Virus record (IMG/VR): IMGVR_UViG_3300037137_001787
Location: 1 to 52,148 of that record
DNA: 52,148 bases
DNA from: a virus
Taxonomy: Duplodnaviria; Caudoviricetes
Direction: 5' to 3' (one strand)
The stretch's first letter is position 1; every line of letters begins with the position of its first letter. A program made the translations under genes and the position numbers. This document shows positions 13,820-51,909 of the stretch, piece after piece. The notes under the pieces were generated by a model that ran no database searches, was not told where the DNA came from, and saw only the letters and a program-made list of their open reading frames with translations.

Positions 13820-13927
13820 ATGGTATTATTCTCCTTTGATTATCTTAAAGGCTTCGCACTTGTAGTGCGGGGTATCGGTCTGTTCGCTGTGAACATACGC
13901 ATCCATTTTTTTTATAATTCGTGGGGT

Positions 13928-15274
13928 CAAGGGGTTAGAGAAAACCCCGCGCCTTTAGGCCGGGGATGAATCGTACCCCTTGGAATTGTAATACCTGTCC
14001 CAAAATAGCAATTGTCGAGAAAGCACGAAAGGACAGGCAAAGGATAATAAAGTATTAAAACAATATAAAGATGTCGAGTAAAACATGAAAAAAACATTCC
14101 AATTCAGGATATACCCAAACAAGAATCAAGAAGTAGCCCTGAACAGAACACTTTCTACATGCAGACGACTCTATAATGATTCTCTTGCTGAACGAAAACG
14201 GCAAGCTGAACTTAACGAACTTGAAAGGACATTCGATGTAACTCCGTGGGGTAAACCCGAATGGTTAAACTACTACGATCAAGCCAATAGTCTATCGGGT
14301 TCAAAGACCGTCTTCCAGAAAGACGTATTCTCTCAGGTCTTACAAAACGTCTTGAAAAGAGTCGAAAGAAGCTTTAAGAATTTTTTTAATGGCTTTGGCT
14401 ACCCCCGTTTTCAGGGAAGAGAAAGGTATAATAGTTTTACCTTTCCGCAATCTGGCTTCAAAATCGAAGATGGAAAACTCAATCTCTCGAAAATAGGAAA
14501 CATTAAGATAGTCCTGCATCGTGAAATTGAAGGCATAATCAAAACCTGTACCATCAAAAAGGATATTGATCAATGGTATGTTTCCTTCTCATGCGAAATC
14601 GACATACCCATAATTCCTGTTGAGGTCAAGACCGAAACAGGCATAGACGTTGGATTGAAATCCCTGATAACCATGAGCAACGGTTGCCAGATTGAGCCTC
14701 CCGAATTTCTAAGAGTATCAGAAAAGAAGCTAACCCGCGAACAGAAGCGACTAAGTCGGAAAAAGAAAAGATCACAAAACAGGAACACCCAGAGAATCGT
14801 AGTAGCAAAAGTACATCGAAGGATCAGGAATCAGAGAAAAGATTTTGCTCATAAGATAAGCAGGAAACTTGTTACTGAATATGATCATATTGTGTTTGAG
14901 GATTTGCAGATACAAAACATGGTTAAGAACTATCGTCTTGCTAAATCCATATCAGATGCAGGATGGTCACAGTTAATCAATTTCACAAAAACCAAAGCAG
15001 AATACGCTGGGAAGATAGTTGAATTGGTTAATCCAAGAAATACAAGTCAGAATTGTAGCAGTTGTGGTAATTCAGTCAAAAAAGACCTATCTATGAGGAT
15101 ACACAGTTGTCCCTTTTGTGGTCTTGTTCTGGATAGAGATCATAATGCTGCAATTAATATCTTAGGACGATCAAATAGTACGGTAGGAATTACCGGAATT
15201 AACGCCCGTCAAGGACTTTCAATAGAGAGCCGATGCAGCGGGACGCCCCCAGCCTTTAGGCGGGGGTAATTCAC
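13928..15274 (+). mobile_element. IS200/IS605-family element 1 (TnpB only)
   Basis: Left-end hairpin ccccgcgcctttaggccgggg. Right-end hairpin cccccagcctttaggcggggg followed by taattcac (ends TCAC). Confidence 0.85.
14085..15269 (+). CDS. tnpB: TnpB RNA-guided nuclease
   Basis: FRIYP HTH, RuvC GIDVG / VFEDL / DRDHNAAINI, and a CxxC..CxxC Zn finger. Confidence 0.95.
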   Translation: MKKTFQFRIYPNKNQEVALNRTLSTCRRLYNDSLAERKRQAELNELERTFDVTPWGKPEWLNYYDQANSLSGSKTVFQKDVFSQVLQNVLKRVERSFKNFFNGFGYPRFQGRERYNSFTFPQSGFKIEDGKLNLSKIGNIKIVLHREIEGIIKTCTIKKDIDQWYVSFSCEIDIPIIPVEVKTETGIDVGLKSLITMSNGCQIEPPEFLRVSEKKLTREQKRLSRKKKRSQNRNTQRIVVAKVHRRIRNQRKDFAHKISRKLVTEYDHIVFEDLQIQNMVKNYRLAKSISDAGWSQLINFTKTKAEYAGKIVELVNPRNTSQNCSSCGNSVKKDLSMRIHSCPFCGLVLDRDHNAAINILGRSNSTVGITGINARQGLSIESRCSGTPPAFRRG

Positions 15275-15575: not shown

Positions 15576-15611
15576 GTGAATTACCCCCGCCTAAAGGCTG
15601 GGGTAATTCAC
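15576..15611. repeat. 36-bp palindromic solo IS605 right end
   Basis: gtgaattacccccgcctaaaggctggggtaattcac. 15576-15603 is the exact reverse complement of 15247-15274. Confidence 0.9.
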
Positions 15612-16229
15612 TCCCCATGCCTTCTTAATACCAATAATAGACTTCTTAATTAAGCACTTAGAATCTAAATCAGATGGTATCCATTTCATATCCCAATATT
15701 GTTTTGATAATCTTGCTATTTTAATATAACTATTACCATCAAGACTTTTTATATTCTTGAAATATGTTTTGTACCATAATTGTTTGCTTGGACTCCCCCC
15801 TAATAAATGAATGTTATAATTACAAATGTCCCAAGTCGCCAATCCCTCTGTTCCTCCATAGCTTGTAGGAATTGAAAAACCAATCATAAATTTTCTTTCA
15901 ATTCTTTCAATTATATCTTTACATTTTGGTATTATTATTACATTCTGAGAATATTGTCTTAACTCCTCTGCCAAATCTAAAATAGTATCTAAATCCGATT
16001 CGTTGAATATATCAGGAGCACAAACATATTTTGGTTTGATAAGTTTGCACAGTTGTAGGTGTTTTTCGATATCCGGTTTTTTATATGCAAAATCAAGAAA
16101 TTGAAGATTGTATTTCGTTCTTAGAGAATTAGCAGCATGTGTATTCGCTCCACATAGTATTTTAGTTTCGACTGCAATATCTAAATATTTTGGTTTGTCG
16201 ATACACATAATTAAATCTATTTTGTGCAT
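15591..16229 (-). CDS. TGT/DpdA-like TIM-barrel protein (DUF6610-like), putative deazaguanine transglycosylase
   Basis: FLD, APD, IHLLGG and SLDGNS motifs resemble TGT-fold enzymes. Coupled to queF. Confidence 0.6.
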   Translation of the reverse strand: MHKIDLIMCIDKPKYLDIAVETKILCGANTHAANSLRTKYNLQFLDFAYKKPDIEKHLQLCKLIKPKYVCAPDIFNESDLDTILDLAEELRQYSQNVIIIPKCKDIIERIERKFMIGFSIPTSYGGTEGLATWDICNYNIHLLGGSPSKQLWYKTYFKNIKSLDGNSYIKIARLSKQYWDMKWIPSDLDSKCLIKKSIIGIKKAWGVNYPSL

Positions 16230-21895: not shown

Positions 21896-24669
21896 CCTCG
21901 TGATTTACAAAAGTTGCTAATTAAGGTCTTAATTGTGTAATTATCGTCCTTATTTTCGTTATTTTCGTCTATTTCAGGGTCTAAATTTGACATAATATGC
22001 ACTTCCATTTGATCTTTTAGTTTCTCGAGATGAATAAAACTATTTGGTTTAGGTATCTTCTCATACTCTTTCTTTAAAATATCTCTTATTTTCTCTTGGA
22101 CAGATTGGACAGATTGGACAGATTGAGAAATTATACCATTTCCGTTACCATTGGACGCATTGGACACGTTGGACACATTATTATTACATGTGACTGTCGT
22201 ACTTAATGGGGGGCTATGGCTAAACAATCTGTCCAATGCGTCCAAATAAGAAATATCAAGTAGCCCGTTATCGATGGACAGATGGACAGATGTTAAATTC
22301 GCATTCATCTGACATCCTCTCTTAATTCTGACCCCTTTTGCTTTCTCACTGATAATATCTCTTTCATTCAATGCCTGCGAGAATGCCTTATCAGATAATT
22401 TATAAATGTGTTTATATTCACACCATTTTAAAAATAAATTATATAATAATTGAAATGAAACAGAACATTCTTTCCCTATAACACAACATGTCTCTAAGAA
22501 CTCCCCAAGCGAATCCATCTCATCAAAATATGTTTCTGTGGCTGCTTTTGCTTTATCAGGAAACCCAATTCCATTTTCCTGCCATGCTTTTACTCCCTGG
22601 AGTGCCCAATTTAATATTCCGGGTGCTTCTGCATGTAATTTTCGATCAAGGTCTTTATCTTTCTCTGCATCGGGAATCTTCACACTAAACGGTATAAATC
22701 GTATGCGCCTGTGTAATCCTTCATCAACGCTTTTTATAACAGGTTTATGATTAAAAGAAATAAATAATTTAAATTGTGGTTGATATTCTTCAGGCTCGCA
22801 GAACTTCCGGCAACACGATATCTTTTCTCTCCCCGTAACGTCCTTAATCTTTCCCTCATCGAGGCGTTTGCCTTTGTTGGGTTCTGATGCGTATGCGAAT
22901 CTTACCCCTTTCAGTGCTGCGATATCAGAGGATAATGCGGACTCGTTCTTCATTTCCATGACTGTATGGATAGCTGTTTTTCTTGCGTACTCTCCCATCA
23001 TGAACGCCAGCGCGTCTATGAACTTGCTCTTACCGTTCGCGCCTGTGCCGTATAACATGAATATACACTCTTCTGAACTATCGCCAGTCAAGGCATATCC
23101 CGCCGCGCGCTGCAAGAACGTAATCATACTCTCATCATCCTGCATTATGCGTTTCAAAAACCCCGCCCATATAGGAGCAGTAGCATTGTTATCATAAGTT
23201 ACGTTTGCAACTTGCGTAATCATATCCTCGCGCCGGAACTCCCGGAATGTCCCGGTTCGTAAATCCACCGTGCCATTAATTACATTGATTAAATATTTAT
23301 CCTTATCAAAATCATCCGGGTCTATGGCTACTCCCGGCAATCCCTGTGCCAGCCTTATCATTGCCATGATGTGATGCTCGGACTCGGATTTTTCGGCGTG
23401 ATCTAACAATTCAGCGCCGTCAGAATTTCTATCCATTTTACCAGCCTCTACATGCATGTTCTGTAACACCTGATCAACGCAAGGAACTATTCCACTATTA
23501 TCTTTTTCTATCCATCTCTTTCCATCATAAATCATCCATGTTTTCCACACCGGAACATATCTCAGATTCCCTCTATGAAATTCAACGAATCGTTTGGCGT
23601 TTCCTAAATCTGTATAAGGTAATTGTTTGATTTCATTGAGATGATCTGATGTGCTTTTTTTCTTTTTTTCTTTTGGTTTGTTCTTGCAAGATTCACATAA
23701 TCCATTAAGAAACACTGAGCAGTTCTCAATGATTTTCTTACAACCCATCGGCTTTTTTCCAGTGGCTATATAATTCTCAACAGATTTTATTTGATTCTCG
23801 GATGTTTCCCTGGAATAATCAGATTGTATCTTAAAATAATCATGTACTTGTTCGTTTGTGGCGCCGTTATAAATCATATCGCCAGCAATCGCTAAATGAA
23901 ACTCATGCCCCGCATCGCCTTTCCCATGTAAATTTAATTTCTCGTCATACGCTTTGACTATACAGGGTTTAATATTTTCTATTTTAAATACATCATAAAA
24001 GTATGCGCCTGTTTTTATGGGGGGAATTTTTCCTTCGTTCAAAGCATCAACACTAAATACACTATCAGGCAATGCCATTAAATAATTTATTGCATCCTGT
24101 TTTTCAAATGGTTGCATCGTTTCAGGATTGATGATTTGGGATCTCGCTTTTGTTCGATTATTAAATTGAAATGGCAGCTTTACAAGGTTGCCAAAACTAT
24201 CGGGGTTTACTTCTGTCTGTTTTGGGAATACTTCATGTCCTTTCAAATCAAGCGTCTTAAGAACCGTATCAAGAACAGTTTTACATGTTTTTGCAGATGT
24301 TGGTTTGCAGATTAATCCAATATGTGCGCCCTGGCTTAACTCCCCACCCGATGCTTCTATGTACGGGTTGAGTCCAATTCGTTTTAACTCATTGACTATT
24401 TTCAAAACACTATCGTTCACATTCACATTATTATCATGATTATCAACATCGATCTGAGGATTCGTACAGGTATTGTTTACCGGATTGACAATGTATGCGC
24501 CGATAGTTTTTTTTTCGCCTAAAATCGAATCATAGATATCATTTTCAGTAAGTTTGAGTTTCTTTGTGAAATATCCATAACGTCCTTTAGTATCTGCCTT
24601 TGTGTTCTGTTGTGCCCATACATCCCAGCGCGAAATAATTCTTTGATATACCTCAAACTCATTGGTCAC
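21886..24669 (-). CDS. AEP primase - D5/P4-type SF3 helicase (927 aa)
   Basis: AEP motifs IDVD, SGG..GAH and GNLVKLP, a Cys cluster, D5_N TDLGNAKRF, Walker A GTGANGKS, and RRIRFIPF. Confidence 0.92.
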   Translation of the reverse strand: MTNEFEVYQRIISRWDVWAQQNTKADTKGRYGYFTKKLKLTENDIYDSILGEKKTIGAYIVNPVNNTCTNPQIDVDNHDNNVNVNDSVLKIVNELKRIGLNPYIEASGGELSQGAHIGLICKPTSAKTCKTVLDTVLKTLDLKGHEVFPKQTEVNPDSFGNLVKLPFQFNNRTKARSQIINPETMQPFEKQDAINYLMALPDSVFSVDALNEGKIPPIKTGAYFYDVFKIENIKPCIVKAYDEKLNLHGKGDAGHEFHLAIAGDMIYNGATNEQVHDYFKIQSDYSRETSENQIKSVENYIATGKKPMGCKKIIENCSVFLNGLCESCKNKPKEKKKKSTSDHLNEIKQLPYTDLGNAKRFVEFHRGNLRYVPVWKTWMIYDGKRWIEKDNSGIVPCVDQVLQNMHVEAGKMDRNSDGAELLDHAEKSESEHHIMAMIRLAQGLPGVAIDPDDFDKDKYLINVINGTVDLRTGTFREFRREDMITQVANVTYDNNATAPIWAGFLKRIMQDDESMITFLQRAAGYALTGDSSEECIFMLYGTGANGKSKFIDALAFMMGEYARKTAIHTVMEMKNESALSSDIAALKGVRFAYASEPNKGKRLDEGKIKDVTGREKISCCRKFCEPEEYQPQFKLFISFNHKPVIKSVDEGLHRRIRFIPFSVKIPDAEKDKDLDRKLHAEAPGILNWALQGVKAWQENGIGFPDKAKAATETYFDEMDSLGEFLETCCVIGKECSVSFQLLYNLFLKWCEYKHIYKLSDKAFSQALNERDIISEKAKGVRIKRGCQMNANLTSVHLSIDNGLLDISYLDALDRLFSHSPPLSTTVTCNNNVSNVSNASNGNGNGIISQSVQSVQSVQEKIRDILKKEYEKIPKPNSFIHLEKLKDQMEVHIMSNLDPEIDENNENKDDNYTIKTLISNFCKSRGWE
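22096..22290. repeat. 9-bp TTGGAC-core iteron-like repeats inside the primase 3' region
   Basis: ttggacaga x3 (22096-22122), three variants (22151-22177), two inverted copies (22228-22245) and atggacag x2 (22274-22290). Confidence 0.8.
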
Positions 24670-25903: not shown

Positions 25904-26254
25904 ATGAGTGAAATAATAAATATTGCAAAACCAACAAAAGAAGCAATTAGAGAAATAGCAGAACAAGAAAAGATAACAAGAAGAGGGTTGATAGATGCAT
26001 TCATAAATATCGATACGGGCGAGTGCGCCGGGATTTTCTGGAGAAATGATGGATATTCTTGGTATGAAAATGAGCCAGAAAATACCTATATGGTCTCAAT
26101 TCCAGCAAGAACAGAACTTGATGAGACAGGGGAAGATTGGGAAGAAGAACTGAAAGACAACATAGACAGAGCGATAGATAGACTCATAGAGAAAATAGAG
26201 AAGCAGCGCTGCTCAAGAAGGAGAAAGTGGTCAGCGCCAAGCTCAGTGGGGTGA
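25904..26254 (+). CDS. Hypothetical acidic protein (C-terminus probably altered by an insertion)
   Basis: GAGGT RBS. The last ~14 codons run into GC-rich structured sequence. Confidence 0.6.
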   Translation: MSEIINIAKPTKEAIREIAEQEKITRRGLIDAFINIDTGECAGIFWRNDGYSWYENEPENTYMVSIPARTELDETGEDWEEELKDNIDRAIDRLIEKIEKQRCSRRRKWSAPSSVG

Positions 26255-26352
26255 TTTAGGATCGTATCAGGCTAATCCCCGCGACTTCAGTCGTGGGATA
26301 CAGCCGTAACTCACCGAAACAATTATTACTTATGATAACCATCTACTATTAA

Positions 26353-26793
26353 ATGAGCAAACAAGAACACTGGATAAGCGGCAGAGGTTGTGTTTACAAC
26401 ATCAACTATCATATGGTATGGAGTACCAAATACCGTAAAAAGGTGTTGATAGGTGATATTGTGGATTACTTGAAACAATTACACGAACAGATTGCAGGTG
26501 AAAAAGGTATAATATTGAGAGAACAAGAGGTAATGCCTGACCATGTTCATCTGTTCATAACAGCTCATCCTAAATATTCGCCATCTCAGATCGTAAAAAT
26601 CTTTAAAGGAATTACAGCAAAAGAACTATTTGAAAAATTCCCTATACTGAGAACCAGAATGTATAATAGGGGACATCTCTGGAACCCAAGCTATTATTGC
26701 GGTACTATGGGCGATGTGACAAAGGATATAGTTCTAAAATATATTGAAATGCAGAAGGTCAAAGATAAAAATGATATTCCAGAAATCTCTTAA
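26353..26793 (+). CDS. tnpA: IS200/IS605 Y1 HUH transposase TnpA
   Basis: YHMVWSTKYRKK, DHVHLF (HUH), LWNPSYY and KYIEMQ (catalytic Tyr). Confidence 0.95.
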   Translation: MSKQEHWISGRGCVYNINYHMVWSTKYRKKVLIGDIVDYLKQLHEQIAGEKGIILREQEVMPDHVHLFITAHPKYSPSQIVKIFKGITAKELFEKFPILRTRMYNRGHLWNPSYYCGTMGDVTKDIVLKYIEMQKVKDKNDIPEIS

Positions 26794-28051
26794 AATCCCT
26801 ATTCATTACGATACAACAAACACCAAAATAGGTATACTGGATAGGCTAACAGCAAGAATAACATATTGTATTATGCTTATTTCAGGACTCATTACTGATG
26901 AAACAGAGATAGATAGAAAAACAATACGAAAAATAGTCAAAGATAACGATATCGCATCAAAAACGGGTTTGTCAGCAGGTTTCATAGATCAGTGTATAGA
27001 TAAGGTCGTCTGGTCATGGAAATCGTATAAGAAACTTCATAATGATTGGGAAAAGAAGGTCAATCGAGCAGAGGAAAGAATAACATCATCAAGAGATGAT
27101 AAAGAAAAAGAGAAAAGAGAGAAATCATTTGACAAACTACTCAAAAGAGAACCATCAATACCTGCGTTTGAAGAAAAGACTCCATGCAGGATAGATTACA
27201 GAACAGGAAACATGCAGTGGGGAAAGGGTAAATTTTCACCATTGTGGATCCGTATATCCACACTGGAGAAAAACAAAAGAATAGATATTCCTTTAAATCC
27301 ATCTCAGTATCATCTGAACCAGCTTCAGAATGCTGAAATAGATGATTTTGAGATCATAAAGCTAAACAATAAATATTACGTTCATATTTCTATCACGAAA
27401 GTGGTAGAGGATAAACCAATAAGATCCATCGGAGGTATAGATCAGGGTCTGAACAGATCCATAGCAGTCGTACTGCTGGAAACACCTGTACCTCGTGAAG
27501 AGCTTTTATTGGATGCAGTAAAGAGAGATCTTCTGGATAAGTACGATAATATAATATCATCGTTACAGGAATCCGGGAAATGGGATAAACTCAGAGAACT
27601 CAGGAACAAAAGAAGTAACGTATCAACATACCATGACTGGTGTCTTGCAAACGAAGTAGCTGACTTCACCGAAGGTTCTCTGATAGCTATAGGTAACACT
27701 CCATTCAGACAGACCCAGTTCAGAGGTAATGGCATGCCCACACTACGAAAACGAATCGGTAAGTGGAGTTATGGTAGACAGAGGATGTTCATAGCTCTGA
27801 AGAGAGCTGAACGTGGTTATTCCACAAAACTAAGAGAAGAAAGGAACACGTCACGAGAATGTCATTGCTGTGGCTCGTTGCTCACCACACGAAAATGGTC
27901 AGATGGCAGTTCATATATCCTCTGTCATTCCTGCGGAGTGAAAGAGGATGCTGATATCAATGCTGCATACAATATAGCTTTTCGATGCCAGGATGACTGG
28001 CTGAAAGTGCAGATGAACATGATAGGAGAAAAACCTCATGCGAGTGCATAA
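26744..28051 (+). CDS. tnpB: Divergent TnpB with rearranged RuvC-II (start probably MIFQKS, 26771)
   Basis: GIDQG, IAIGN in place of the E-motif, EERNTS, CHCC..CHSC and DADINAAYNIA. Confidence 0.85.
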   Translation: MKCRRSKIKMIFQKSLKIPIHYDTTNTKIGILDRLTARITYCIMLISGLITDETEIDRKTIRKIVKDNDIASKTGLSAGFIDQCIDKVVWSWKSYKKLHNDWEKKVNRAEERITSSRDDKEKEKREKSFDKLLKREPSIPAFEEKTPCRIDYRTGNMQWGKGKFSPLWIRISTLEKNKRIDIPLNPSQYHLNQLQNAEIDDFEIIKLNNKYYVHISITKVVEDKPIRSIGGIDQGLNRSIAVVLLETPVPREELLLDAVKRDLLDKYDNIISSLQESGKWDKLRELRNKRSNVSTYHDWCLANEVADFTEGSLIAIGNTPFRQTQFRGNGMPTLRKRIGKWSYGRQRMFIALKRAERGYSTKLREERNTSRECHCCGSLLTTRKWSDGSSYILCHSCGVKEDADINAAYNIAFRCQDDWLKVQMNMIGEKPHASA

Positions 28052-28089
28052 GAATGGATGCTCGCCTTTTCAAAGGCGAGAGAAGTCAC

Positions 28090-28716
28090 AAAAACAGTAT
28101 CAGACAGATTGGGGAGAAACTATGAGCAGTTCACTTCTGCAAGAGACCGAACAGAACAACATGGTCTCTCAGATTATTTTCTCCAATCTATTCTATAGAG
28201 AGACCCAGGCGGGAAACAACATCCTATCCACCTTCGAAACACCTGTTGTTTCCGTCTGTACTATTCGGGATGATGTTCAGAGCCACCCGTATATCAATGG
28301 TAAAGATATATCGAATGCTCAGGAACCAAAGACGGATTCGCGATCCGTTCATCCCCTTCCGGCACGCATCGGATCACCCTCATGTCTGCCGGATACAACG
28401 GGCGCAGGACAAATCTTTTACACCACTAACCCCCACTCCTGCGCCCACTATAATTATCAAAACATCGGTTCTGGTTCAGCTATCGCGGGTTCAGTCTCGC
28501 TCCACCACAACCAAACAACCACACCTCCGAACAAAACAGAAGGAAGAAAGGTACGACATCCGACAAGGCGAGAAAGTCAGGAAAGATTCCCGGCAGGGAC
28601 TCAACTACACAAATTAGCTTACGGTTGTGTAGCCTTTCCATACCCCGTATCCTTGTCGGAAGGCGACTTGCCGGGGCGGACCTCCCCGGCATTCTACTGA
28701 CGCGGGGGTAATTCAC
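28090..28716 (+). ncRNA. Putative large structured non-coding RNA of unknown family
   Basis: At least 8 stems, e.g. 28206-21/28244-58, 28400-09/28437-46 and 28559-68/28651-60. G-U wobbles favour the + strand. Linkers are A/C-rich, and the overlapping ORFs look non-protein-like. Confidence 0.65.
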
Positions 28717-28730
28717 AGGAGATTCATTAA

Positions 28731-28928
28731 ATGCCGTCAGGACAACCAACATTCGATAAAATAAACGATTTGCTTGTTTCTGATTCGTGCTTTGAGATTT
28801 TGAAGGATTTGGGGCGCGCAGTTGAAAATTACAATACTAAATTTGGACGAGAGATGTTGCATAATGCTATTAAAAAAATTCAGGCATTAAAAAAAGCACA
28901 TGATCTTACGCCAGGAACCAAGCGATAA
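28731..28928 (+). CDS. Hypothetical protein
   Basis: AGGAG RBS. Confidence 0.55.
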   Translation: MPSGQPTFDKINDLLVSDSCFEILKDLGRAVENYNTKFGREMLHNAIKKIQALKKAHDLTPGTKR

Positions 28929-28969
28929 CTATTTAAGCCAATAGTATCATACAATGATATTGTGATTGT

Positions 28970-29191
28970 ATGACATTATCAGAAATACAGAAACAAACAA
29001 TAGTGCAAATAAAAGAACTGGAAAAAGAGTTTGGTGTGAGGTGGTTCGTTCAGGCAGAGTTGCTTGGTGTAACACTTCGTACCATGAGAGCTCTTGTTGA
29101 GAAAGGGTATCTTGTGGATAGGGAGTTTAATGATTTACCTTATTATCAATGGAAAGGAAAAGAAATCGAAGATGAAAATCTCAAACGGTGA
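28970..29191 (+). CDS. Small winged-helix-like protein
   Basis: QAELLGVTLRTMRALVEKGYL. Confidence 0.55.
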   Translation: MTLSEIQKQTIVQIKELEKEFGVRWFVQAELLGVTLRTMRALVEKGYLVDREFNDLPYYQWKGKEIEDENLKR

Positions 29192-29197
29192 TAACTC

Positions 29198-29557
29198 ATG
29201 AACAACCAAGAACTTGTACAAAAACTTGAATCATTGCCTGAAAGCATCCGGACCAAAAGTCTTGAGTTGCTTGCAATCCAAGAACAGATCGATACATTCC
29301 AGAACGATGTATATACCTTAAAAACAACGGCAATGGAAAAGGTACTGACTGACGGACTTGCTACGAACGATAAAGCAAGAGTTACAGCGCAAACCAGCCT
29401 TCTATCAAAAGATCAGCTTTACATCGATGCGGAAAAGTCGCTTCGGGAACAACAAAAGAAACTCAGACAGGAACAGGCGCAACTGGAGTATCTCCACGGT
29501 ATATTCAGTGCATACAAAGCGATTGCAAACATGATGTCAAATCCGGCGGTGTACTAA
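29198..29557 (+). CDS. Coiled-coil hypothetical protein
   Basis: Heptad-rich ORF in operon. Confidence 0.6.
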   Translation: MNNQELVQKLESLPESIRTKSLELLAIQEQIDTFQNDVYTLKTTAMEKVLTDGLATNDKARVTAQTSLLSKDQLYIDAEKSLREQQKKLRQEQAQLEYLHGIFSAYKAIANMMSNPAVY

Positions 29558-29560
29558 AAT

Positions 29561-29959
29561 ATGTGCAAAGGACTTGCAGTTATAACGGAAAAAATCAAAG
29601 ACGAATGGAAAGTGTACGCAAAACAGGGCGAATCATCACATGACAAAATACTTCATGAACAACGGGACGATTTACGATTTGGAAAAGCACCCCATCTCAA
29701 ATTTGAAGTATTATTTCCTGTCAGAGTTCAAGATAATATTCAACAGGATTGCGAATATCCAACTGGATGGATAGAACTTCAGTGGGGTAAGAAAGTTGCA
29801 TGTAAGGACGCATTCTTCGCAGTTTTCAAGCATTTGCGTGATAATCCTGAGTTGCTTGAGTTCATGCCAAGTATGTTTCAAGAGGCTGACCTGAGTGGGG
29901 CTGATACAAAAGGAACGATCTTTCCTGAAAAGTTCAAAAGCCCAGAGGTGAAATCATGA
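29561..29959 (+). CDS. Hypothetical protein with a vestigial pentapeptide repeat
   Basis: MCK..A N-terminus, SH motif and EADLSGAD near the C-terminus. Confidence 0.55.
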   Translation: MCKGLAVITEKIKDEWKVYAKQGESSHDKILHEQRDDLRFGKAPHLKFEVLFPVRVQDNIQQDCEYPTGWIELQWGKKVACKDAFFAVFKHLRDNPELLEFMPSMFQEADLSGADTKGTIFPEKFKSPEVKS

Positions 29960-31476
29960 ATGTAGACCAACAGTCCGTGATCAAATCCTTGCTCATCAAG
30001 CGAGGATATAAAGAATCCGGCATTACAAAGGGTTGGTTTTTCACAGAGGATGGTAGCGACAGGGCTGCCGACTTGCGGAAAGCCAAGCCGATCATCGGTA
30101 TTCTGATATCGGGCAACATAGTCACTGAAGGGCATGGAAATCTCAAAATTCTGGACGATATCCAGGAAGTTGAAGCGATCATGCGTGCTGGGCACATCAG
30201 CGGAAACGAGGGCGTTCTAAAGTCTGACACTCCTGACACTCCTGACACTTCAAAGAAAGGCACTACCACAGCGATATGCGAAAGGTGTAAGCTCCAATTC
30301 AATGTTACAAATGTAGATCAGGCGCAAAAAATCATAGAACAGTATGGTAAGTTATTCTGTCTGAAATGCCAGAGTTCCCCTCCTACAATGGATAGCAAGA
30401 TTGAACTGCCGAAAAACAACGCAAAGCCCGATTCAAGAATTGTAACCAAGAACTGTAAATCGTGCGGTCTGGAATTGTCAGGCGCCAGGGCGTTATACTG
30501 CTACCAGAAAGAGAAACCGTTCACATGCGAGGATTGTTATGAAAAAGAATATAAGGAAACGGAAAAGGGAAAAGATGCGACGATTGAGAAACGTGAAGCC
30601 AGACCCGAAGAATCAAAGATAATTCGCCAGCCGGACGCAAGGATACCAATACAAACACACACTCAACAGGGCGGCAGTATTATCAAAGGATTCCAACCAT
30701 CCCTAAAAGAGATTGGCAAAATCAAAATAGGCAGCAAGGGTGAAGAAAAACCAAAAGCAGGAGGCGGCACATTCCGATTGCCCGTAAAATTCGATCACTT
30801 TGAGATCGTATCCCTTGTACGAAATGAGAAAGGAGATTTCATCAAAGATCCGGTAATGCAGTTGCTTGGCGAGAACCCGAAAGAACTTGATATAATGTTG
30901 CTGTTCAACGAACCGACACTGAACTTCATTACCCGATACAATCAATATCAGGGCGGAAAATGTCTTTGTCAGGGCGATGGAGCAACGGCAAAACAAATAG
31001 ATGGCGCACAGGTAGAATGCAACCCAGATACCTGCCCACAGTTCGCTCAAAAGAAATGCAAGCCAAATGGTATCCTGTCAGTAATCCTCACGAAATCCCC
31101 CCGGCTTGGCGGCGTGTACAAATTCAGGACAACATCGTTCAATAGTATTAGATCAATACTATCCTCGCTATTCTTCCTCAGCAACCTTACAGGCGGCGTT
31201 CTGGCGATGATCCCATTGAAATTGACAGTATCCCCTATGCAGGTTCAACCGAAGGATTCTGCGAAGCCACAGACAATCTTCGTGGTAAATATTGAGTTCT
31301 CAGGAACCGCACCTGAATTGCTACAAAAGACGTTTGAAGTACATACCTATCAGAAAGATATGAGGGAACATATTATCAAGCTCGAAAGCACAGCACGTGC
31401 AGCACTGACCGCGCCAGAGAGCAAGGAAGAAATCAATGAGATAGAAGCTGAGTTCTATCCGAAGCAGGAGAAATGA
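29956..31476 (+). CDS. Recombination protein: Zn fingers plus a Gp3/RDF-like C-terminal domain
   Basis: EIGKIKIG, CQGDG, CKPNGILSVIL and GGVYKFRTTSFNS, with several CxxC pairs. Confidence 0.65.
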   Translation: MNVDQQSVIKSLLIKRGYKESGITKGWFFTEDGSDRAADLRKAKPIIGILISGNIVTEGHGNLKILDDIQEVEAIMRAGHISGNEGVLKSDTPDTPDTSKKGTTTAICERCKLQFNVTNVDQAQKIIEQYGKLFCLKCQSSPPTMDSKIELPKNNAKPDSRIVTKNCKSCGLELSGARALYCYQKEKPFTCEDCYEKEYKETEKGKDATIEKREARPEESKIIRQPDARIPIQTHTQQGGSIIKGFQPSLKEIGKIKIGSKGEEKPKAGGGTFRLPVKFDHFEIVSLVRNEKGDFIKDPVMQLLGENPKELDIMLLFNEPTLNFITRYNQYQGGKCLCQGDGATAKQIDGAQVECNPDTCPQFAQKKCKPNGILSVILTKSPRLGGVYKFRTTSFNSIRSILSSLFFLSNLTGGVLAMIPLKLTVSPMQVQPKDSAKPQTIFVVNIEFSGTAPELLQKTFEVHTYQKDMREHIIKLESTARAALTAPESKEEINEIEAEFYPKQEK

Positions 31477-35523: not shown

Positions 35524-35597
35524 GTCACACTGACCCCGTACTCAAGTACGGGGCATGAACGGGACGGGTAACGACTCTGCGGAGTCGCTTGGCGCAT
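35524..35597 (-). repeat. IS605 right-end-like hairpin repeat
   Basis: ccccgtactcaagtacgggg hairpin. 35564-35597 is identical to 36402-36435. Confidence 0.75.
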
Positions 35598-35778
35598 AAA
35601 CAACAATAATAAAGAGGTTGAAAATGGTATCAGATGAGGAAGCTGCTGATATGGTTATATCTAACCTGAAATCTAAAGGGTTTGCAGTCAAAGACAGGAA
35701 TCTGATAATTGCAGATATTCATGCAATCAGAGAACGAAAAATAAAAGGGACAAAAGATGTAACGGATAAATGGAGAAT

Positions 35779-35857: not shown

Positions 35858-36331
35858 ATGGCTGAACACGAAGAGAAACGATTAACAGAAACCCCCATCA
35901 AAGATTGTTGCGAGTTCATTCGCGACAATTTTGATAATATAATACCGTTTGAGGTAAAAAGTGGATATGGATTTCAGATTAGAATGGGTGAAGCTACATA
36001 CAGAGAACTTCCTGAAAAGTATAAGTCTGAACTAAAACAGTTTGCTTATTTCGGTGAGCAAAGGGTACGTGATAGTATCTGGCAACGATACTTACTGGAT
36101 TATTTCTGGACATATACACAAGAATATATTTTTAATTTCAATATCGAAAAAGCAATATCTATAGAAACAAAATGTGTTTATGGATATGAAGGAGTTGAGG
36201 ACTCGGATCAAGAAATCGTATTTATAGATGTGGTTGCGTTTCCTGAATTTATTATGCTAAATATTGGTTTAGGACAAAAGGATATACTAAAATATCCAAA
36301 AGATGCGCATGTTTCCGTTTCAAGTGTATGA
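35858..36331 (+). CDS. AT-rich hypothetical cassette protein
   Basis: GAGGT RBS, bracketed by repeats. Confidence 0.65.
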   Translation: MAEHEEKRLTETPIKDCCEFIRDNFDNIIPFEVKSGYGFQIRMGEATYRELPEKYKSELKQFAYFGEQRVRDSIWQRYLLDYFWTYTQEYIFNFNIEKAISIETKCVYGYEGVEDSDQEIVFIDVVAFPEFIMLNIGLGQKDILKYPKDAHVSVSSV

Positions 36332-36346: not shown

Positions 36347-36435
36347 GTGACCGATACCCCGCACTCCGCTGCGGCTAAAGTGCGAGGCATCTACGGACGA
36401 AACGGGTAACGACTCTGCGGAGTCGCTTGGCGCAT
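36347..36435 (-). repeat. IS605 right-end-like hairpin repeat
   Basis: gtgaccgataccccgcact...agtgcgaggcatctacg...ggcgcat. Confidence 0.75.
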
Positions 36436-36597
36436 GAAACAAGCATATAGAAAAGAGGTTAAAATATGATACCAAAAGGTTGTTATAGGGACAACACAGA
36501 ACGATTATATGATGATTTAACAAAATCGTTATGCACGCTATCAAATCCTCCTGCGAAGAATATTGAGGAGTGGACTGAACGGTATGGAAGCGACTGA

Positions 36598-50506: not shown

Positions 50507-51909
50507 GTGACATCCTCCCCCCCCCTGAAGGGACGGGGCTTCCTGTTTCGTTGATCGGGCTTGCTATGTTCGACATAGTATCGGCTCGATCTCCACAGGC
50601 GTAAATTCGGTACTGTCCGTACCTACATTCTTGCATTTGCCTCTATTTTCTATTAGTATTGCTGAAACGTGATCCCTGTTGAGTACAAGACCACAGGAAG
50701 GACATGAGTGTATCCTTACTGACAGGTCTTTAGGTACAGGATATCCACAAACACATGTCTGTGACGTTCCATTAGGATTGACCTGAATGACTGATTTCCC
50801 AGCTTCTTCCGCTTTGGATATCGTCATCCTGATCAACTGACCCCAACCAGCATCCGAGATACTCTTAGCAAGACAATGATTCTTGACCATGTTATTGATA
50901 TGTAATTTCTCGAATACGATCCGGTCAAAATTATTAACAAGCATTCTGCTTGTCTTATGAGCAAAATCTTTTCTCTGGTTCCTGATTTTCCTGTGCACTC
51001 TGGCTACCTTGATCCTCTGTTTATTTCTGTTCTTTGATCTGAGTTTCTTTTTTGATAGTTGTCTCTGTTCATGGATGAGTTTCTCTTCTGACAATCTCAG
51101 GAACTTCGGGGGTTCTATCTGGTCTCCATTACTCAAGGTCAAAAGAGATTTCAAACCAACATCGATGCCTATTATGGTTTCTACAGGAATCTTCTTGATC
51201 TCTCGATCTATTTCGGTTGTGAATATCACATACCACTGATCCACATCCTTCTTGATGGTACATGTCTTGATCTTCCCTTCAATTTCCCTGTGTAAGAATA
51301 TCCTGATGTTACCTATCTTCGACAGGTTGAGCTTTCCATCCTCGATTCCAAACCCTTTTTGTGGATACGTAAACGTATTATATCTATTTCTTCCTTTGAA
51401 ACGGGGATAGCCATTTCCTCCAAAGAAATTCAGAAAACTTCTATCCAGTCTCTTCAGGACGTTCTGCAGAACTTGTGAGAATACTTCTTTCTGAAAAGGG
51501 GTTTTCGATCCGGGAAGATCGTTTGCCTGATCTTCATATTTTATCCATTCCGGTTTTCCCCATGGAATTATTCCAAAATCCCGTTCGAGATTGTTTAGTT
51601 CTGCTTCTCTTCTTCGTTCTTCCAGAGCATCATTGTAAAGATGACGACATGTGGAAAGTGTTCTGTTCAGTTTAACTTCCTGATTCTTGTTCGGGTATAT
51701 CCTGAACTGGTATGCTTTCTTCATGTTATCAGTCTCCGTAATATCTATATTGTTTCGATGCATTATATAGTTTATGCCCGTCCCGTAATCAGTCTTCGCA
51801 AACTGTTTTTCCGGGACGGGTATTATTATTTTCATGGTTTTCTATCGCCGTTATGAGTGGGGGTACGATTCATCCCCGCCCTGAAGGAACGGGGTTTTCT
51901 CTACCCCTC
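50507..51909 (-). mobile_element. IS200/IS605-family element 4 (TnpB only), relative of element 1
   Basis: Left end aggggtagagaaaaccccgttccttcagggcggggatgaatcgtacccc is nearly the same as in element 1. Right end gaagccccgtcccttcaggggggggaggatgtcac. Confidence 0.85.
50564..51724 (-). CDS. tnpB: TnpB RNA-guided nuclease (start MKKAYQF at 51724)
   Basis: GIDVG / VFEKL / NRDHVSA and a Zn finger. Clearly homologous to 14085-15269. Confidence 0.93.
   Translation of the reverse strand: MKKAYQFRIYPNKNQEVKLNRTLSTCRHLYNDALEERRREAELNNLERDFGIIPWGKPEWIKYEDQANDLPGSKTPFQKEVFSQVLQNVLKRLDRSFLNFFGGNGYPRFKGRNRYNTFTYPQKGFGIEDGKLNLSKIGNIRIFLHREIEGKIKTCTIKKDVDQWYVIFTTEIDREIKKIPVETIIGIDVGLKSLLTLSNGDQIEPPKFLRLSEEKLIHEQRQLSKKKLRSKNRNKQRIKVARVHRKIRNQRKDFAHKTSRMLVNNFDRIVFEKLHINNMVKNHCLAKSISDAGWGQLIRMTISKAEEAGKSVIQVNPNGTSQTCVCGYPVPKDLSVRIHSCPSCGLVLNRDHVSAILIENRGKCKNVGTDSTEFTPVEIEPILCRT

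Follow-up and report, generated by a model that had tools for sequence, protein, structure and literature searches.

The complete virus record IMGVR_UViG_3300037137_001787 of IMG/VR (52,148 nt, with direct terminal repeats of 127 nt), here called the window, belongs to a head-tail virus whose genes include those for the large terminase, portal, major capsid protein and tail tube and for a D5-type primase-helicase. A Methanoperedens-type archaeon (Ca. Methanoperedens) is its probable host, because the named closest relatives of the transposon genes in the window come from Ca. Methanoperedens, Methanotrichaceae and Methanosaeta. Viruses of Methanoperedens, and TnpB genes common to this host, its viruses and other extrachromosomal elements, are described in a preprint (10.1101/2023.08.02.551345). 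In the window two insertions are nested between the last codons of one virus gene and the next gene. The outer one is a foreign segment of ~675 nt, named U in the current study, which consists of 26207–26254 and 28090–28716. It is interrupted by the inner one, an insertion sequence (IS) named element 2, which entered the pre-existing U. The features of the locus are listed below.

25904–26206, plus strand: virus gene with U in its 3' end, conserved core of 101 codons (six homologues, P0130–P0135, 68–84% identity).
26207–26254, plus strand: U-left, the 48 nt of U upstream of the IS, with the tail of the upstream gene and a gcgctg/cagcgc hairpin.
26255–28089, plus strand: element 2, a complete IS200/IS605-family insertion sequence, delimited by blastn, aligned ends and assembly-graph branches.
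26353–26793, plus strand: tnpA, Y1 HUH transposase of 146 amino acids (aa) (Pfam PF01797 Y1_Tnp, E 1.9e-39).
26771–28051, plus strand: tnpB, 426 aa from the ATG, the start in the list of open reading frames (ORFs) being TTG 26744 (Pfam PF07282, E 2.3e-13).
28090–28716, plus strand: U-right, 627 nt, the GC- and C-rich, strongly folding main body of U, distinguished by folding z-scores, stems and composition.
28122–28700, plus strand: open frame of 192 codons (220 from ATG 28038 inside tnpB), with GGGGAG before ATG 28122.
28398–28452, plus strand: homologue of a host-order small RNA, a hairpin with stem GGGCGCAGG/CCTGCGCCC and loop ...CUUUUACACCACUAACCCCCAC... (covariance model match, blastn).
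28702–28716, plus strand: 15-nt remnant equal to the last 15 nt of the right end of element 1 (gcgggggtaattcac), 17 nt with the flanking AG.
28731–28928, plus strand: downstream virus gene, 65 aa, with an AGGAG ribosome site directly after U and no match in Pfam or PHROG.

U may well be a structured non-coding RNA, a reading in which about even confidence is placed. It is favoured by the codon statistics of the open frame, by a pattern of amino acid replacement like that of neutral drift, and by the low predicted local distance difference test (pLDDT) of the translated product.

All six homologues of the upstream gene align up to residue 101 (Q101) and stop 3–6 residues later, with short E-rich tails, so the aberrant 15-residue tail RCSRRRKWSAPSSVG plus stop that U-left gives to this gene, and that is missing in 6/6 homologues, is foreign, and the left edge of U lies at ~26207. 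This agrees with the edge near 26205–26207 proposed in the first-pass annotation, as does the reconstructed gene end ...KQEIH*, whose length matches that of the six homologues and which is followed directly by the start of the next gene. The triplet CAG is present at both junctions (26204–26206 and 28716–28718). Across 28100–28700 the GC content is 0.45–0.53 with an excess of C, compared with 0.32–0.46 nearby, and the foreign nature of U rests on this contrast together with the homologues ending where U begins.

Element 2 is an ordinary autonomous IS200/IS605 element, and 28090–28716 lies outside it. When 26200–28730 was compared by blastn with 16 loci fetched via the TnpB protein, all from Methanoperedens, Methanotrichaceae and Methanosaeta genomes, homology was found only from 26255 to ~28101. 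Alignment of six left ends and twelve right ends set the limits to 26255/6 and 28089, the flanks being unrelated from copy to copy, and branch points at 26260/26268 and 28089/28090 are present in the assembly graphs of three sediment runs. The TnpA-TnpB element had been taken for a separate insertion, and these limits bear this out. Its left end begins with TTTAGGA and carries a hairpin at 26278–26297, its right-end hairpin lies at 28061–28080, and its last bases are ...GTCAC. It thus has a TnpA gene, a gene for TnpB (a Cas12f-like nuclease) and the subterminal hairpin ends shared by its relatives. As in the family in general, there are no inverted terminal repeats and there are many copies with conserved ends, the sole oddity being that, unlike the other two TnpB proteins of the virus, this one is recognised in Pfam by the TNB-domain model alone and by neither OrfB_IS605 nor HTH. 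This TnpB has 331 homologues at E ≤ 0.001, mostly of 424–426 aa, the named ones being Ca. Methanoperedens; its clade comprises more than 300 close relatives in Methanoperedens- and Methanothrix-type sequences. Elements of the IS200/IS605 family move as single strands by 'peel and paste', and a guide RNA is made from their right end. The right-end origin of the TnpB guide is also given in the preprint (10.1101/2023.08.02.551345).

It is likely that element 2 split one single unit. When the IS was removed in silico, the minimum-energy fold closed U by 16 pairs (26234–26252 with 28691–28709); when the left part was shuffled, at least 14 closing pairs were obtained in 4/150 cases and at least 10 in 8/150. 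The pairing of the two ends across the IS, as first proposed, is therefore present in the IS-free fold. The alignment of U with a relative, P0125 (tblastn), crosses the joined site by six residues, which adds 0.8 bit and is a weak hint. No contig with the IS-free allele (26254 joined to 28090) was found in the three sediment runs. Read depth was ~410 across the IS and ~414–425 in its flanks, indicating that the IS is fixed in the main population.

Strain variants were visible in the assembly graphs, where position 28090 has three different left neighbours. In the second sediment run U-right has a different left neighbour and differs by three indels and zero substitutions; one indel lies in a bulge (and makes the stem 28106–28119/28177–28189 perfect), one in a hairpin loop and one beyond the fold. 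Further variants were seen in runs X1 and X3. A 4,084-nt contig (depth 11.6 compared with ~410) shares 26231–26260 and then diverges. Two other sequences lead into 28090, one in a contig of 292 nt (depth 20.3) and one in an X3 contig, and both contigs have a 2-nt deletion at 28111. At this site minor strains carry something else in place of element 2. IMG/VR had no match to a 24-nt piece of the X3 loose end, and a 30-mer of this end showed no significant similarity to U-left (P = 0.20).

Every stem that the first-pass annotation had listed in U was recovered in place. The stems 28106–28119/28177–28189 (13 bp) and 28206–28221/28244–28258 have energies of -16.4 and -19.2 kcal/mol, respectively, and those at 28400–28409/28437–28446 and 28559–28568/28651–28660 are perfect over 10 bp each. 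The gcgctg/cagcgc hairpin lies at 26207–26237, and both the proposed pseudoknot (28589–28596/28668–28675, -14.2 kcal/mol) and the long-range pairing of 26241–26253 with 28690–28703 (-15.0 kcal/mol) form. The 665 nt that follow tnpB (28052–28716) fold with -219.8 kcal/mol, compared with -173.2 ± 6.9 kcal/mol for 20 dinucleotide shuffles (z = -6.7), while the minus strand gave z = -3.7; the fold is thus better than that of shuffled controls. In a genome-wide control of 173 tiles of 300 nt the mean z was -0.52 (standard deviation 1.7), and 21 tiles had z ≤ -2.5. The sole run of three consecutive tiles at z ≤ -2.5 was 27901–28800, which also had the lowest three-window sum (-9.36), followed by the region of element 1 (-9.25). 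Perfect stems of at least 9 bp number three in U, the genome mean being 0.49 and the maximum five per 627 nt.

One hairpin of U has relatives in the genomes of the host order. In blastn searches of 53 Methanoperedenaceae genomes the matches to U were confined to 28398–28439 at 17 of 18 places, in 15 genomes, with 83–90% identity to the host genes over ~29–43 nt and a different stem. A covariance model built from 13 host units (R1) matched the window hairpin at 28398–28452 with 29.4 bits (E 1.3e-6), and this was the sole match in the window below E 0.09. From this homology we take the hairpin for a diverged copy of a small RNA that the host order carries.

The host RNA itself was recognised by R1 in 53/53 Methanoperedenaceae genomes, with 1–20 copies and sometimes four in tandem, and in 147 of 151 sampled genomes of the order Methanosarcinales. 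Its unit is a hairpin of ~58 nt with an archaeal TATA box ~26 nt upstream and a T-run downstream, and tandem units of 126–143 nt are frequent. The loop reads ...CUUUUUU...ACUAACCCCCACUCCCC... (host loci L022:1428-1962, L019:1496-1683, L087–L094 and L107–L111). The C-rich loop ...UAACCCCCACUCCCC... is invariant while the stem co-varies among paralogues and in other families, the compensatory pairs being GGGCAGG/CCUGCCC, GGGCGGG/CCCGCCC, GGGUAGG/CCUACCC and GAUGAGCGGG/CCCGCUCAU. The host units matched no family in Rfam (Rfam 15), and a 15-mer of the hairpin motif was not found printed in the searchable literature.

The viral hairpin resembles the host RNA in its stem enclosing a U-run and the ACUAACCCCCACUCC loop, with the loop core ACUAACCCCCAC in common. 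It differs in its longer stem (an extra G-C step), its shorter loop and its embedding in a fold of 675 nt, and neither a TATA box nor a T-run of its own was found. With neither a promoter nor a terminator to itself, its expression would depend on a longer RNA of which it is part. U-right as a whole has no canonical plus-strand TATA box at ≤1 mismatch.

A full unit of the small RNA, with TATA box and T-run, was found at 2052–2135 of another IMG/VR record (L044; 54,970 nt), where it scored 51.2 bits. Its 3' tail repeats CCTGCGCCC, the 3' stem of the window copy, and it adjoins an ORF of 463 aa that resembles Phage_integrase weakly (E 3.9e-4, short of the Pfam cut-off); from this arrangement, the unit in L044 may be an attachment site. 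A scan of IMG/VR with a 15-mer gave 19 stretches, among which only L044 has a hairpin unit. In complete genomes of the order the C-rich motif (one strand GGGAGTGGGGGTTA) also occurs two to three times in tandem, 18–24 nt apart (G192:C1:419623-419684, 1225112-1225144 and 147878-147910; G201:C1:1139703-1139741 and 1702734-1702766), which suggests further RNAs or binding sites built from the motif.

The right terminus of U had been described as identical to the end of element 1, and this identity was found to extend over 15 nt, or 17 nt with the flanking AG. The core GGGGGTAATTCAC has three exact occurrences (28704; 15262, where element 1 ends; 15576 on the minus strand), compared with 0.05 expected at ≤1 mismatch. 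A covariance model of the omega-RNA and right end of the element-1 family (R2; 21 copies, 24 base pairs) was used for comparison; the TnpB family concerned is present in 29 of the 53 Methanoperedenaceae genomes. In the window R2 scored 146.8 bits at element 1, 37.3 bits at element 3 and 20.3 bits at a solo right end (15576–15744, minus strand); at 28716, where U ends, there was no match with the threshold relaxed to E ≤ 10. When the terminal 110 nt of U were aligned with 20 right ends of the family, similarity was limited to the final 15 nt; U has neither the 5' arm of the right-end hairpin nor the omega-RNA body, and there is no scaffold upstream of the ...TA(A/G)TTCAC end. The left end of the family is absent as well, its consensus GTGGGGTCAAGGGGTAGAG... 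being represented in U only by a 9-mer with one mismatch at 26246–26254. Since the omega-RNA model, the right-end hairpin and the left end all fail to match U, the IS605 motif is, by these comparisons, real, but only a 15-nt remnant of an element-1-type right end. The relative P0126 reads past the position of the remnant without the motif, and the X3 strain variant has 11 different nt around 28714–28726, which alter it.

The suggestion that U is a mobile RNA element found no support, as there is one copy in the virus, none in the 53 family genomes or in 284 genomes of the order, and five relatives from metagenomes. Apart from the ~29–43 nt of the hairpin in 15 genomes, no U DNA was detected in the 53 Methanoperedenaceae genomes, and translated U gave one match at noise level there (E 0.0088, five stops). 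No relative was found when 26200–28730 was compared as DNA with 50,697 phage records, when translated U was compared with phages and plasmids, or when the alignment of the ORF in U was used as a query for related loci in IMG/VR. An exact 21-mer of U had no match in IMG/VR, a 20-mer found one unrelated contig in a metagenome scan, and U was not found in the L044 record. Non-autonomous derivatives of IS200/IS605 elements are named PATEs. U shares with these and with TnpB omega-RNAs the last 15 nt (those of an element-1-type right end) and, after them, a potential 'guide', but it differs from them in having no right-end hairpin, left end or scaffold, no paired hairpin ends and, instead of multiple dispersed copies, a single one.

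No Rfam family was found in the window at gathering thresholds, and none in 26552–30216 at E ≤ 1. Since Rfam includes group I and II introns and large phage RNA families, the idea that U is an IStron or a known ribozyme was abandoned, and group I intron, group II intron, RNase P, SRP, GOLLD and ROOL were dropped as candidates. GOLLD, ROOL, HEARO and the group I and II introns are all Rfam families. U is similar to the large non-coding RNAs of phages and viruses and to IStrons in its size class (~0.6 kb), its dense stems and its location in a virus near IS605-type genes, and differs from them in matching no Rfam family.

Two TnpB-only IS605-type elements of one family are present in the virus (13925–15274, plus strand; 50518–51907, minus strand), with TnpB proteins of 394 and 423 aa. 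Their left ends of 48 nt are 90% complementary as an inverted pair, and their genes are 71–74% similar. In genomic copies of this family GTGGGGTCAAGGGG is preceded by a common left flank, TTTAT..C, similar to an archaeal TATA box. The solo right end of the element-1 family (15576–15611, minus strand, with 15599–15611, plus strand) consists of a hairpin and TAATTCAC with no TnpB gene; the sequence is nearly palindromic and is located at the 3' end of a DUF6610 gene.

The first-pass annotation was wrong in calling U ORF-less, as the frame 28038/28122–28700 spans the stretch. When the ORF was compared with 1.84 billion representative proteins, seven matches were obtained at E ≤ 0.001. Of these one is its own entry, another is a weak match in several stretches to a protein of 874 aa, and the other five, with E from 3e-24 to 1e-4, are credible relatives. 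These five, which were compared as ORF translations, are singletons on contigs of 684–19,003 nt, the longest of which, a JGI contig, encodes P0126; their starts and ends vary, and three of the five cover only part of U, one of these on a 19-kb contig. Such a search finds only relatives that stayed in frame and is thus a biased sample. In P0123 a stretch of 42 residues is identical to the translation of U. An ORF in another frame (P0122) had no relatives.

The frame of U does not behave like a gene in composition. Its codon score (-0.159) is below those of all 37 virus genes and four IS genes (-0.075 to +0.30), its 3-periodicity is the lowest of 42 frames tested, and the GC content at the three codon positions is flat (0.51/0.49/0.50). 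In comparison with the five homologous ORFs (471 aligned positions, identity 0.53), the fraction of mismatches with positive BLOSUM62 scores was 0.21 and their mean score -0.72. A simulation of neutral in-frame drift at the same identity gave 0.24 ± 0.05 and -0.67, whereas the real-protein pairs from the same window (15/15) gave 0.36–0.58 and -0.05 to +0.40. Replacement of a protein-conserving kind is thus not seen, and because the pattern equals neutral drift and is unlike that of real-protein pairs, the database matches look like nucleotide conservation read through a frame. The protein-level matches to 28038–28700, which would have spoken against an RNA, are therefore formally present and behave as translated nucleotide conservation. 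AlphaFold2 with an alignment of six rows gave a mean pLDDT of 48.4 and a predicted template modelling score of 0.17 with zero residues at or above 70, which is weak evidence given the shallow alignment. The ORF has no Pfam or PHROG family and no usable match in a protein atlas, and its recognition value in a protein language model was 1142, compared with the 2300 reached by 91 of 100 proteins of known families; a control query gave none. These data indicate that 28122–28700 is probably not a protein gene.

Several results weigh against a non-coding RNA, and most of them would be accommodated by a fast-evolving orphan protein gene (a 'moron' of ~190–212 codons) that was cut by the IS after about ten codons, in which ATG 28122 is possibly still used and the hairpins are incidental or regulate the mRNA. 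The stop-free run of 202 codons is longer than expected by chance (P = 0.0018 in dinucleotide shuffles and ≤ 0.002 in shuffles of blocks of 15–627 nt). Stop triplets are depleted in 28090–28716 on the plus strand only, with 10 observed (1, 3 and 6 per frame) compared with 21–28 expected; this depletion is left unexplained by an RNA and keeps the gene alive as a reading. Potential ribosome sites precede ATG 28122 and, in the IS-free form, GTG 26227 (AAGGAG). All five relatives are called in the same frame, one of them (P0124, 219 aa) being open across the whole unit, the sole indel inside the open frame of the strain variant is of 3 nt, and strand and spacing match those of the neighbouring genes. 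Other points against the RNA do not involve the frame. Individual 300-nt tiles outside U, some of them in tnpB, have z as low as -5 and are folded as strongly as U, so its folding, while above the genome background and the most consistent of any genome stretch, is not unique. An unconstrained duplex search between U-left and U-right did not exceed shuffles (P = 0.81). The TATA box and T-run of the host unit are missing from the viral hairpin, and to judge by their translations two homologues have not kept its loop motif. Against the orphan gene stand the codon score and periodicity, the worst of all frames compared, the neutral pattern of replacement, which falls outside all 15 real-protein controls, the shifting ends and partial extent of the relatives, the low pLDDT and recognition value with no known family, the folding excess, and the significant match to a host non-coding RNA inside the frame. 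On balance an orphan gene is considered unlikely, though a serious alternative.

A decaying relic, consisting of captured DNA or of the cargo or remains of an element-1-type IS605 element of which the last 15 nt are left, and broken further by the second IS, is less credible still. It would agree with the short right-end remnant that has no hairpin, left end or omega-RNA body, with the toleration and fixation of an IS inside U, with the lack of a promoter signal, and with the five singleton relatives in the databases; the solo right end in the same virus shows that such relics persist. Blocks of U are nevertheless strongly conserved in distant contigs, as in P0123, in the strain variant U is free of substitutions and the stems are untouched by its indels, and folding and stop depletion both point to constraint, which together make decay rather improbable. 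Integration of the virus into the host small-RNA gene, with the host-like hairpin as attachment site and U as the attP region, was considered because the host RNA family is multi-copy and the L044 unit lies beside the ORF with the sub-threshold integrase match. Integration into tRNA genes is known from other archaeal viruses. A Pfam scan of 39 ORFs of the window (part of all ORFs) revealed no integrase, the host match is imperfect, with a different stem and no exact core, and the other 570 nt of folded, conserved sequence would be left unaccounted for, so that this explanation is very improbable. The proposal that U is an oversized stand-alone omega-RNA, which would guide an element-1-type TnpB to the sequence after 28716, drew on the 15–17 nt of identity at the scaffold-guide boundary and on the two TnpB genes of the element-1 family in the same virus. 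It is close to refuted, since R2 found element 1, element 3 and the solo end and not U, the alignment with family right ends stops at the final 15 nt, and the motif is absent in P0126 and altered in the X3 variant.

With a structured non-coding RNA thus preferred, we infer a highly folded plus-strand transcript. As no canonical TATA box was detected in U, transcription would come from the upstream gene block or by read-through from the IS. The ends of U would pair and close a body of many hairpins, with long loops and linkers rich in A and C. In a more speculative step, U might display the invariant loop of the host RNA, together with similar C-rich loops, as a mimic or decoy, and so engage the G-rich partner of the host RNA, which could be an RNA (ribosome-binding-site-like sequences) or a protein. 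In Methanosarcina mazei, a member of the same order, the intergenic small RNAs sRNA154 and sRNA41 mask ribosome-binding sites with exposed anti-ribosome-site sequences (PMC5867862). By analogy, masking of ribosome-binding sites is a reasonable model for the host hairpin RNA, and the same mode of action is conceivable for the C-rich loops in U and in the host hairpin, no sequence relation being claimed. The decoy mechanism for U is a conjecture. The full proposal, in which U represents a new class of virus-borne long non-coding RNA (~0.6–0.7 kb) whose C-rich loops would mimic the host RNA and hijack or sponge its partner in infection, with the host RNA as an undescribed, near-universal regulator of Methanosarcinales, is put forward tentatively and in its entirety is more doubtful than the RNA nature of U.

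If U is an RNA, it would be among the few large structured non-coding RNAs from an archaeal virus, and a case of a virus copying a host small RNA, in methane-consuming archaea. The host hairpin RNA may matter more than U, given its small size, its near-universal presence in the sampled Methanosarcinales, its up to 20 copies in Methanoperedenaceae and its absence from Rfam 15; its function is testable, as genetically tractable Methanosarcina carry it. If U is a relic or an orphan gene, the locus is an ordinary nested IS insertion.

The upstream virus gene (25904–26206) had no match in Pfam or PHROG, its profile found nothing in the 53 Methanoperedenaceae genomes, and its alignment found no related loci in IMG/VR; the same search with the TnpB of element 2 and with both flanking proteins gave no relatives.

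Elsewhere in the window, seven copies of a 9-nt unit (TTGGACAGA and variants) form two clusters at 22096–22285, with inverted copies at 22225–22245. They lie in the 3' part of the primase-helicase gene, in the stretch of the genome that has the most perfect stems, and from this arrangement the region is a candidate replication origin with iterons. A direct repeat of 42 nt (93% identical) with a GACTCTGCGGAGTC hairpin was also found at 35559–35600 and 36397–36438, where it brackets a gene of 157 aa (35858–36331).

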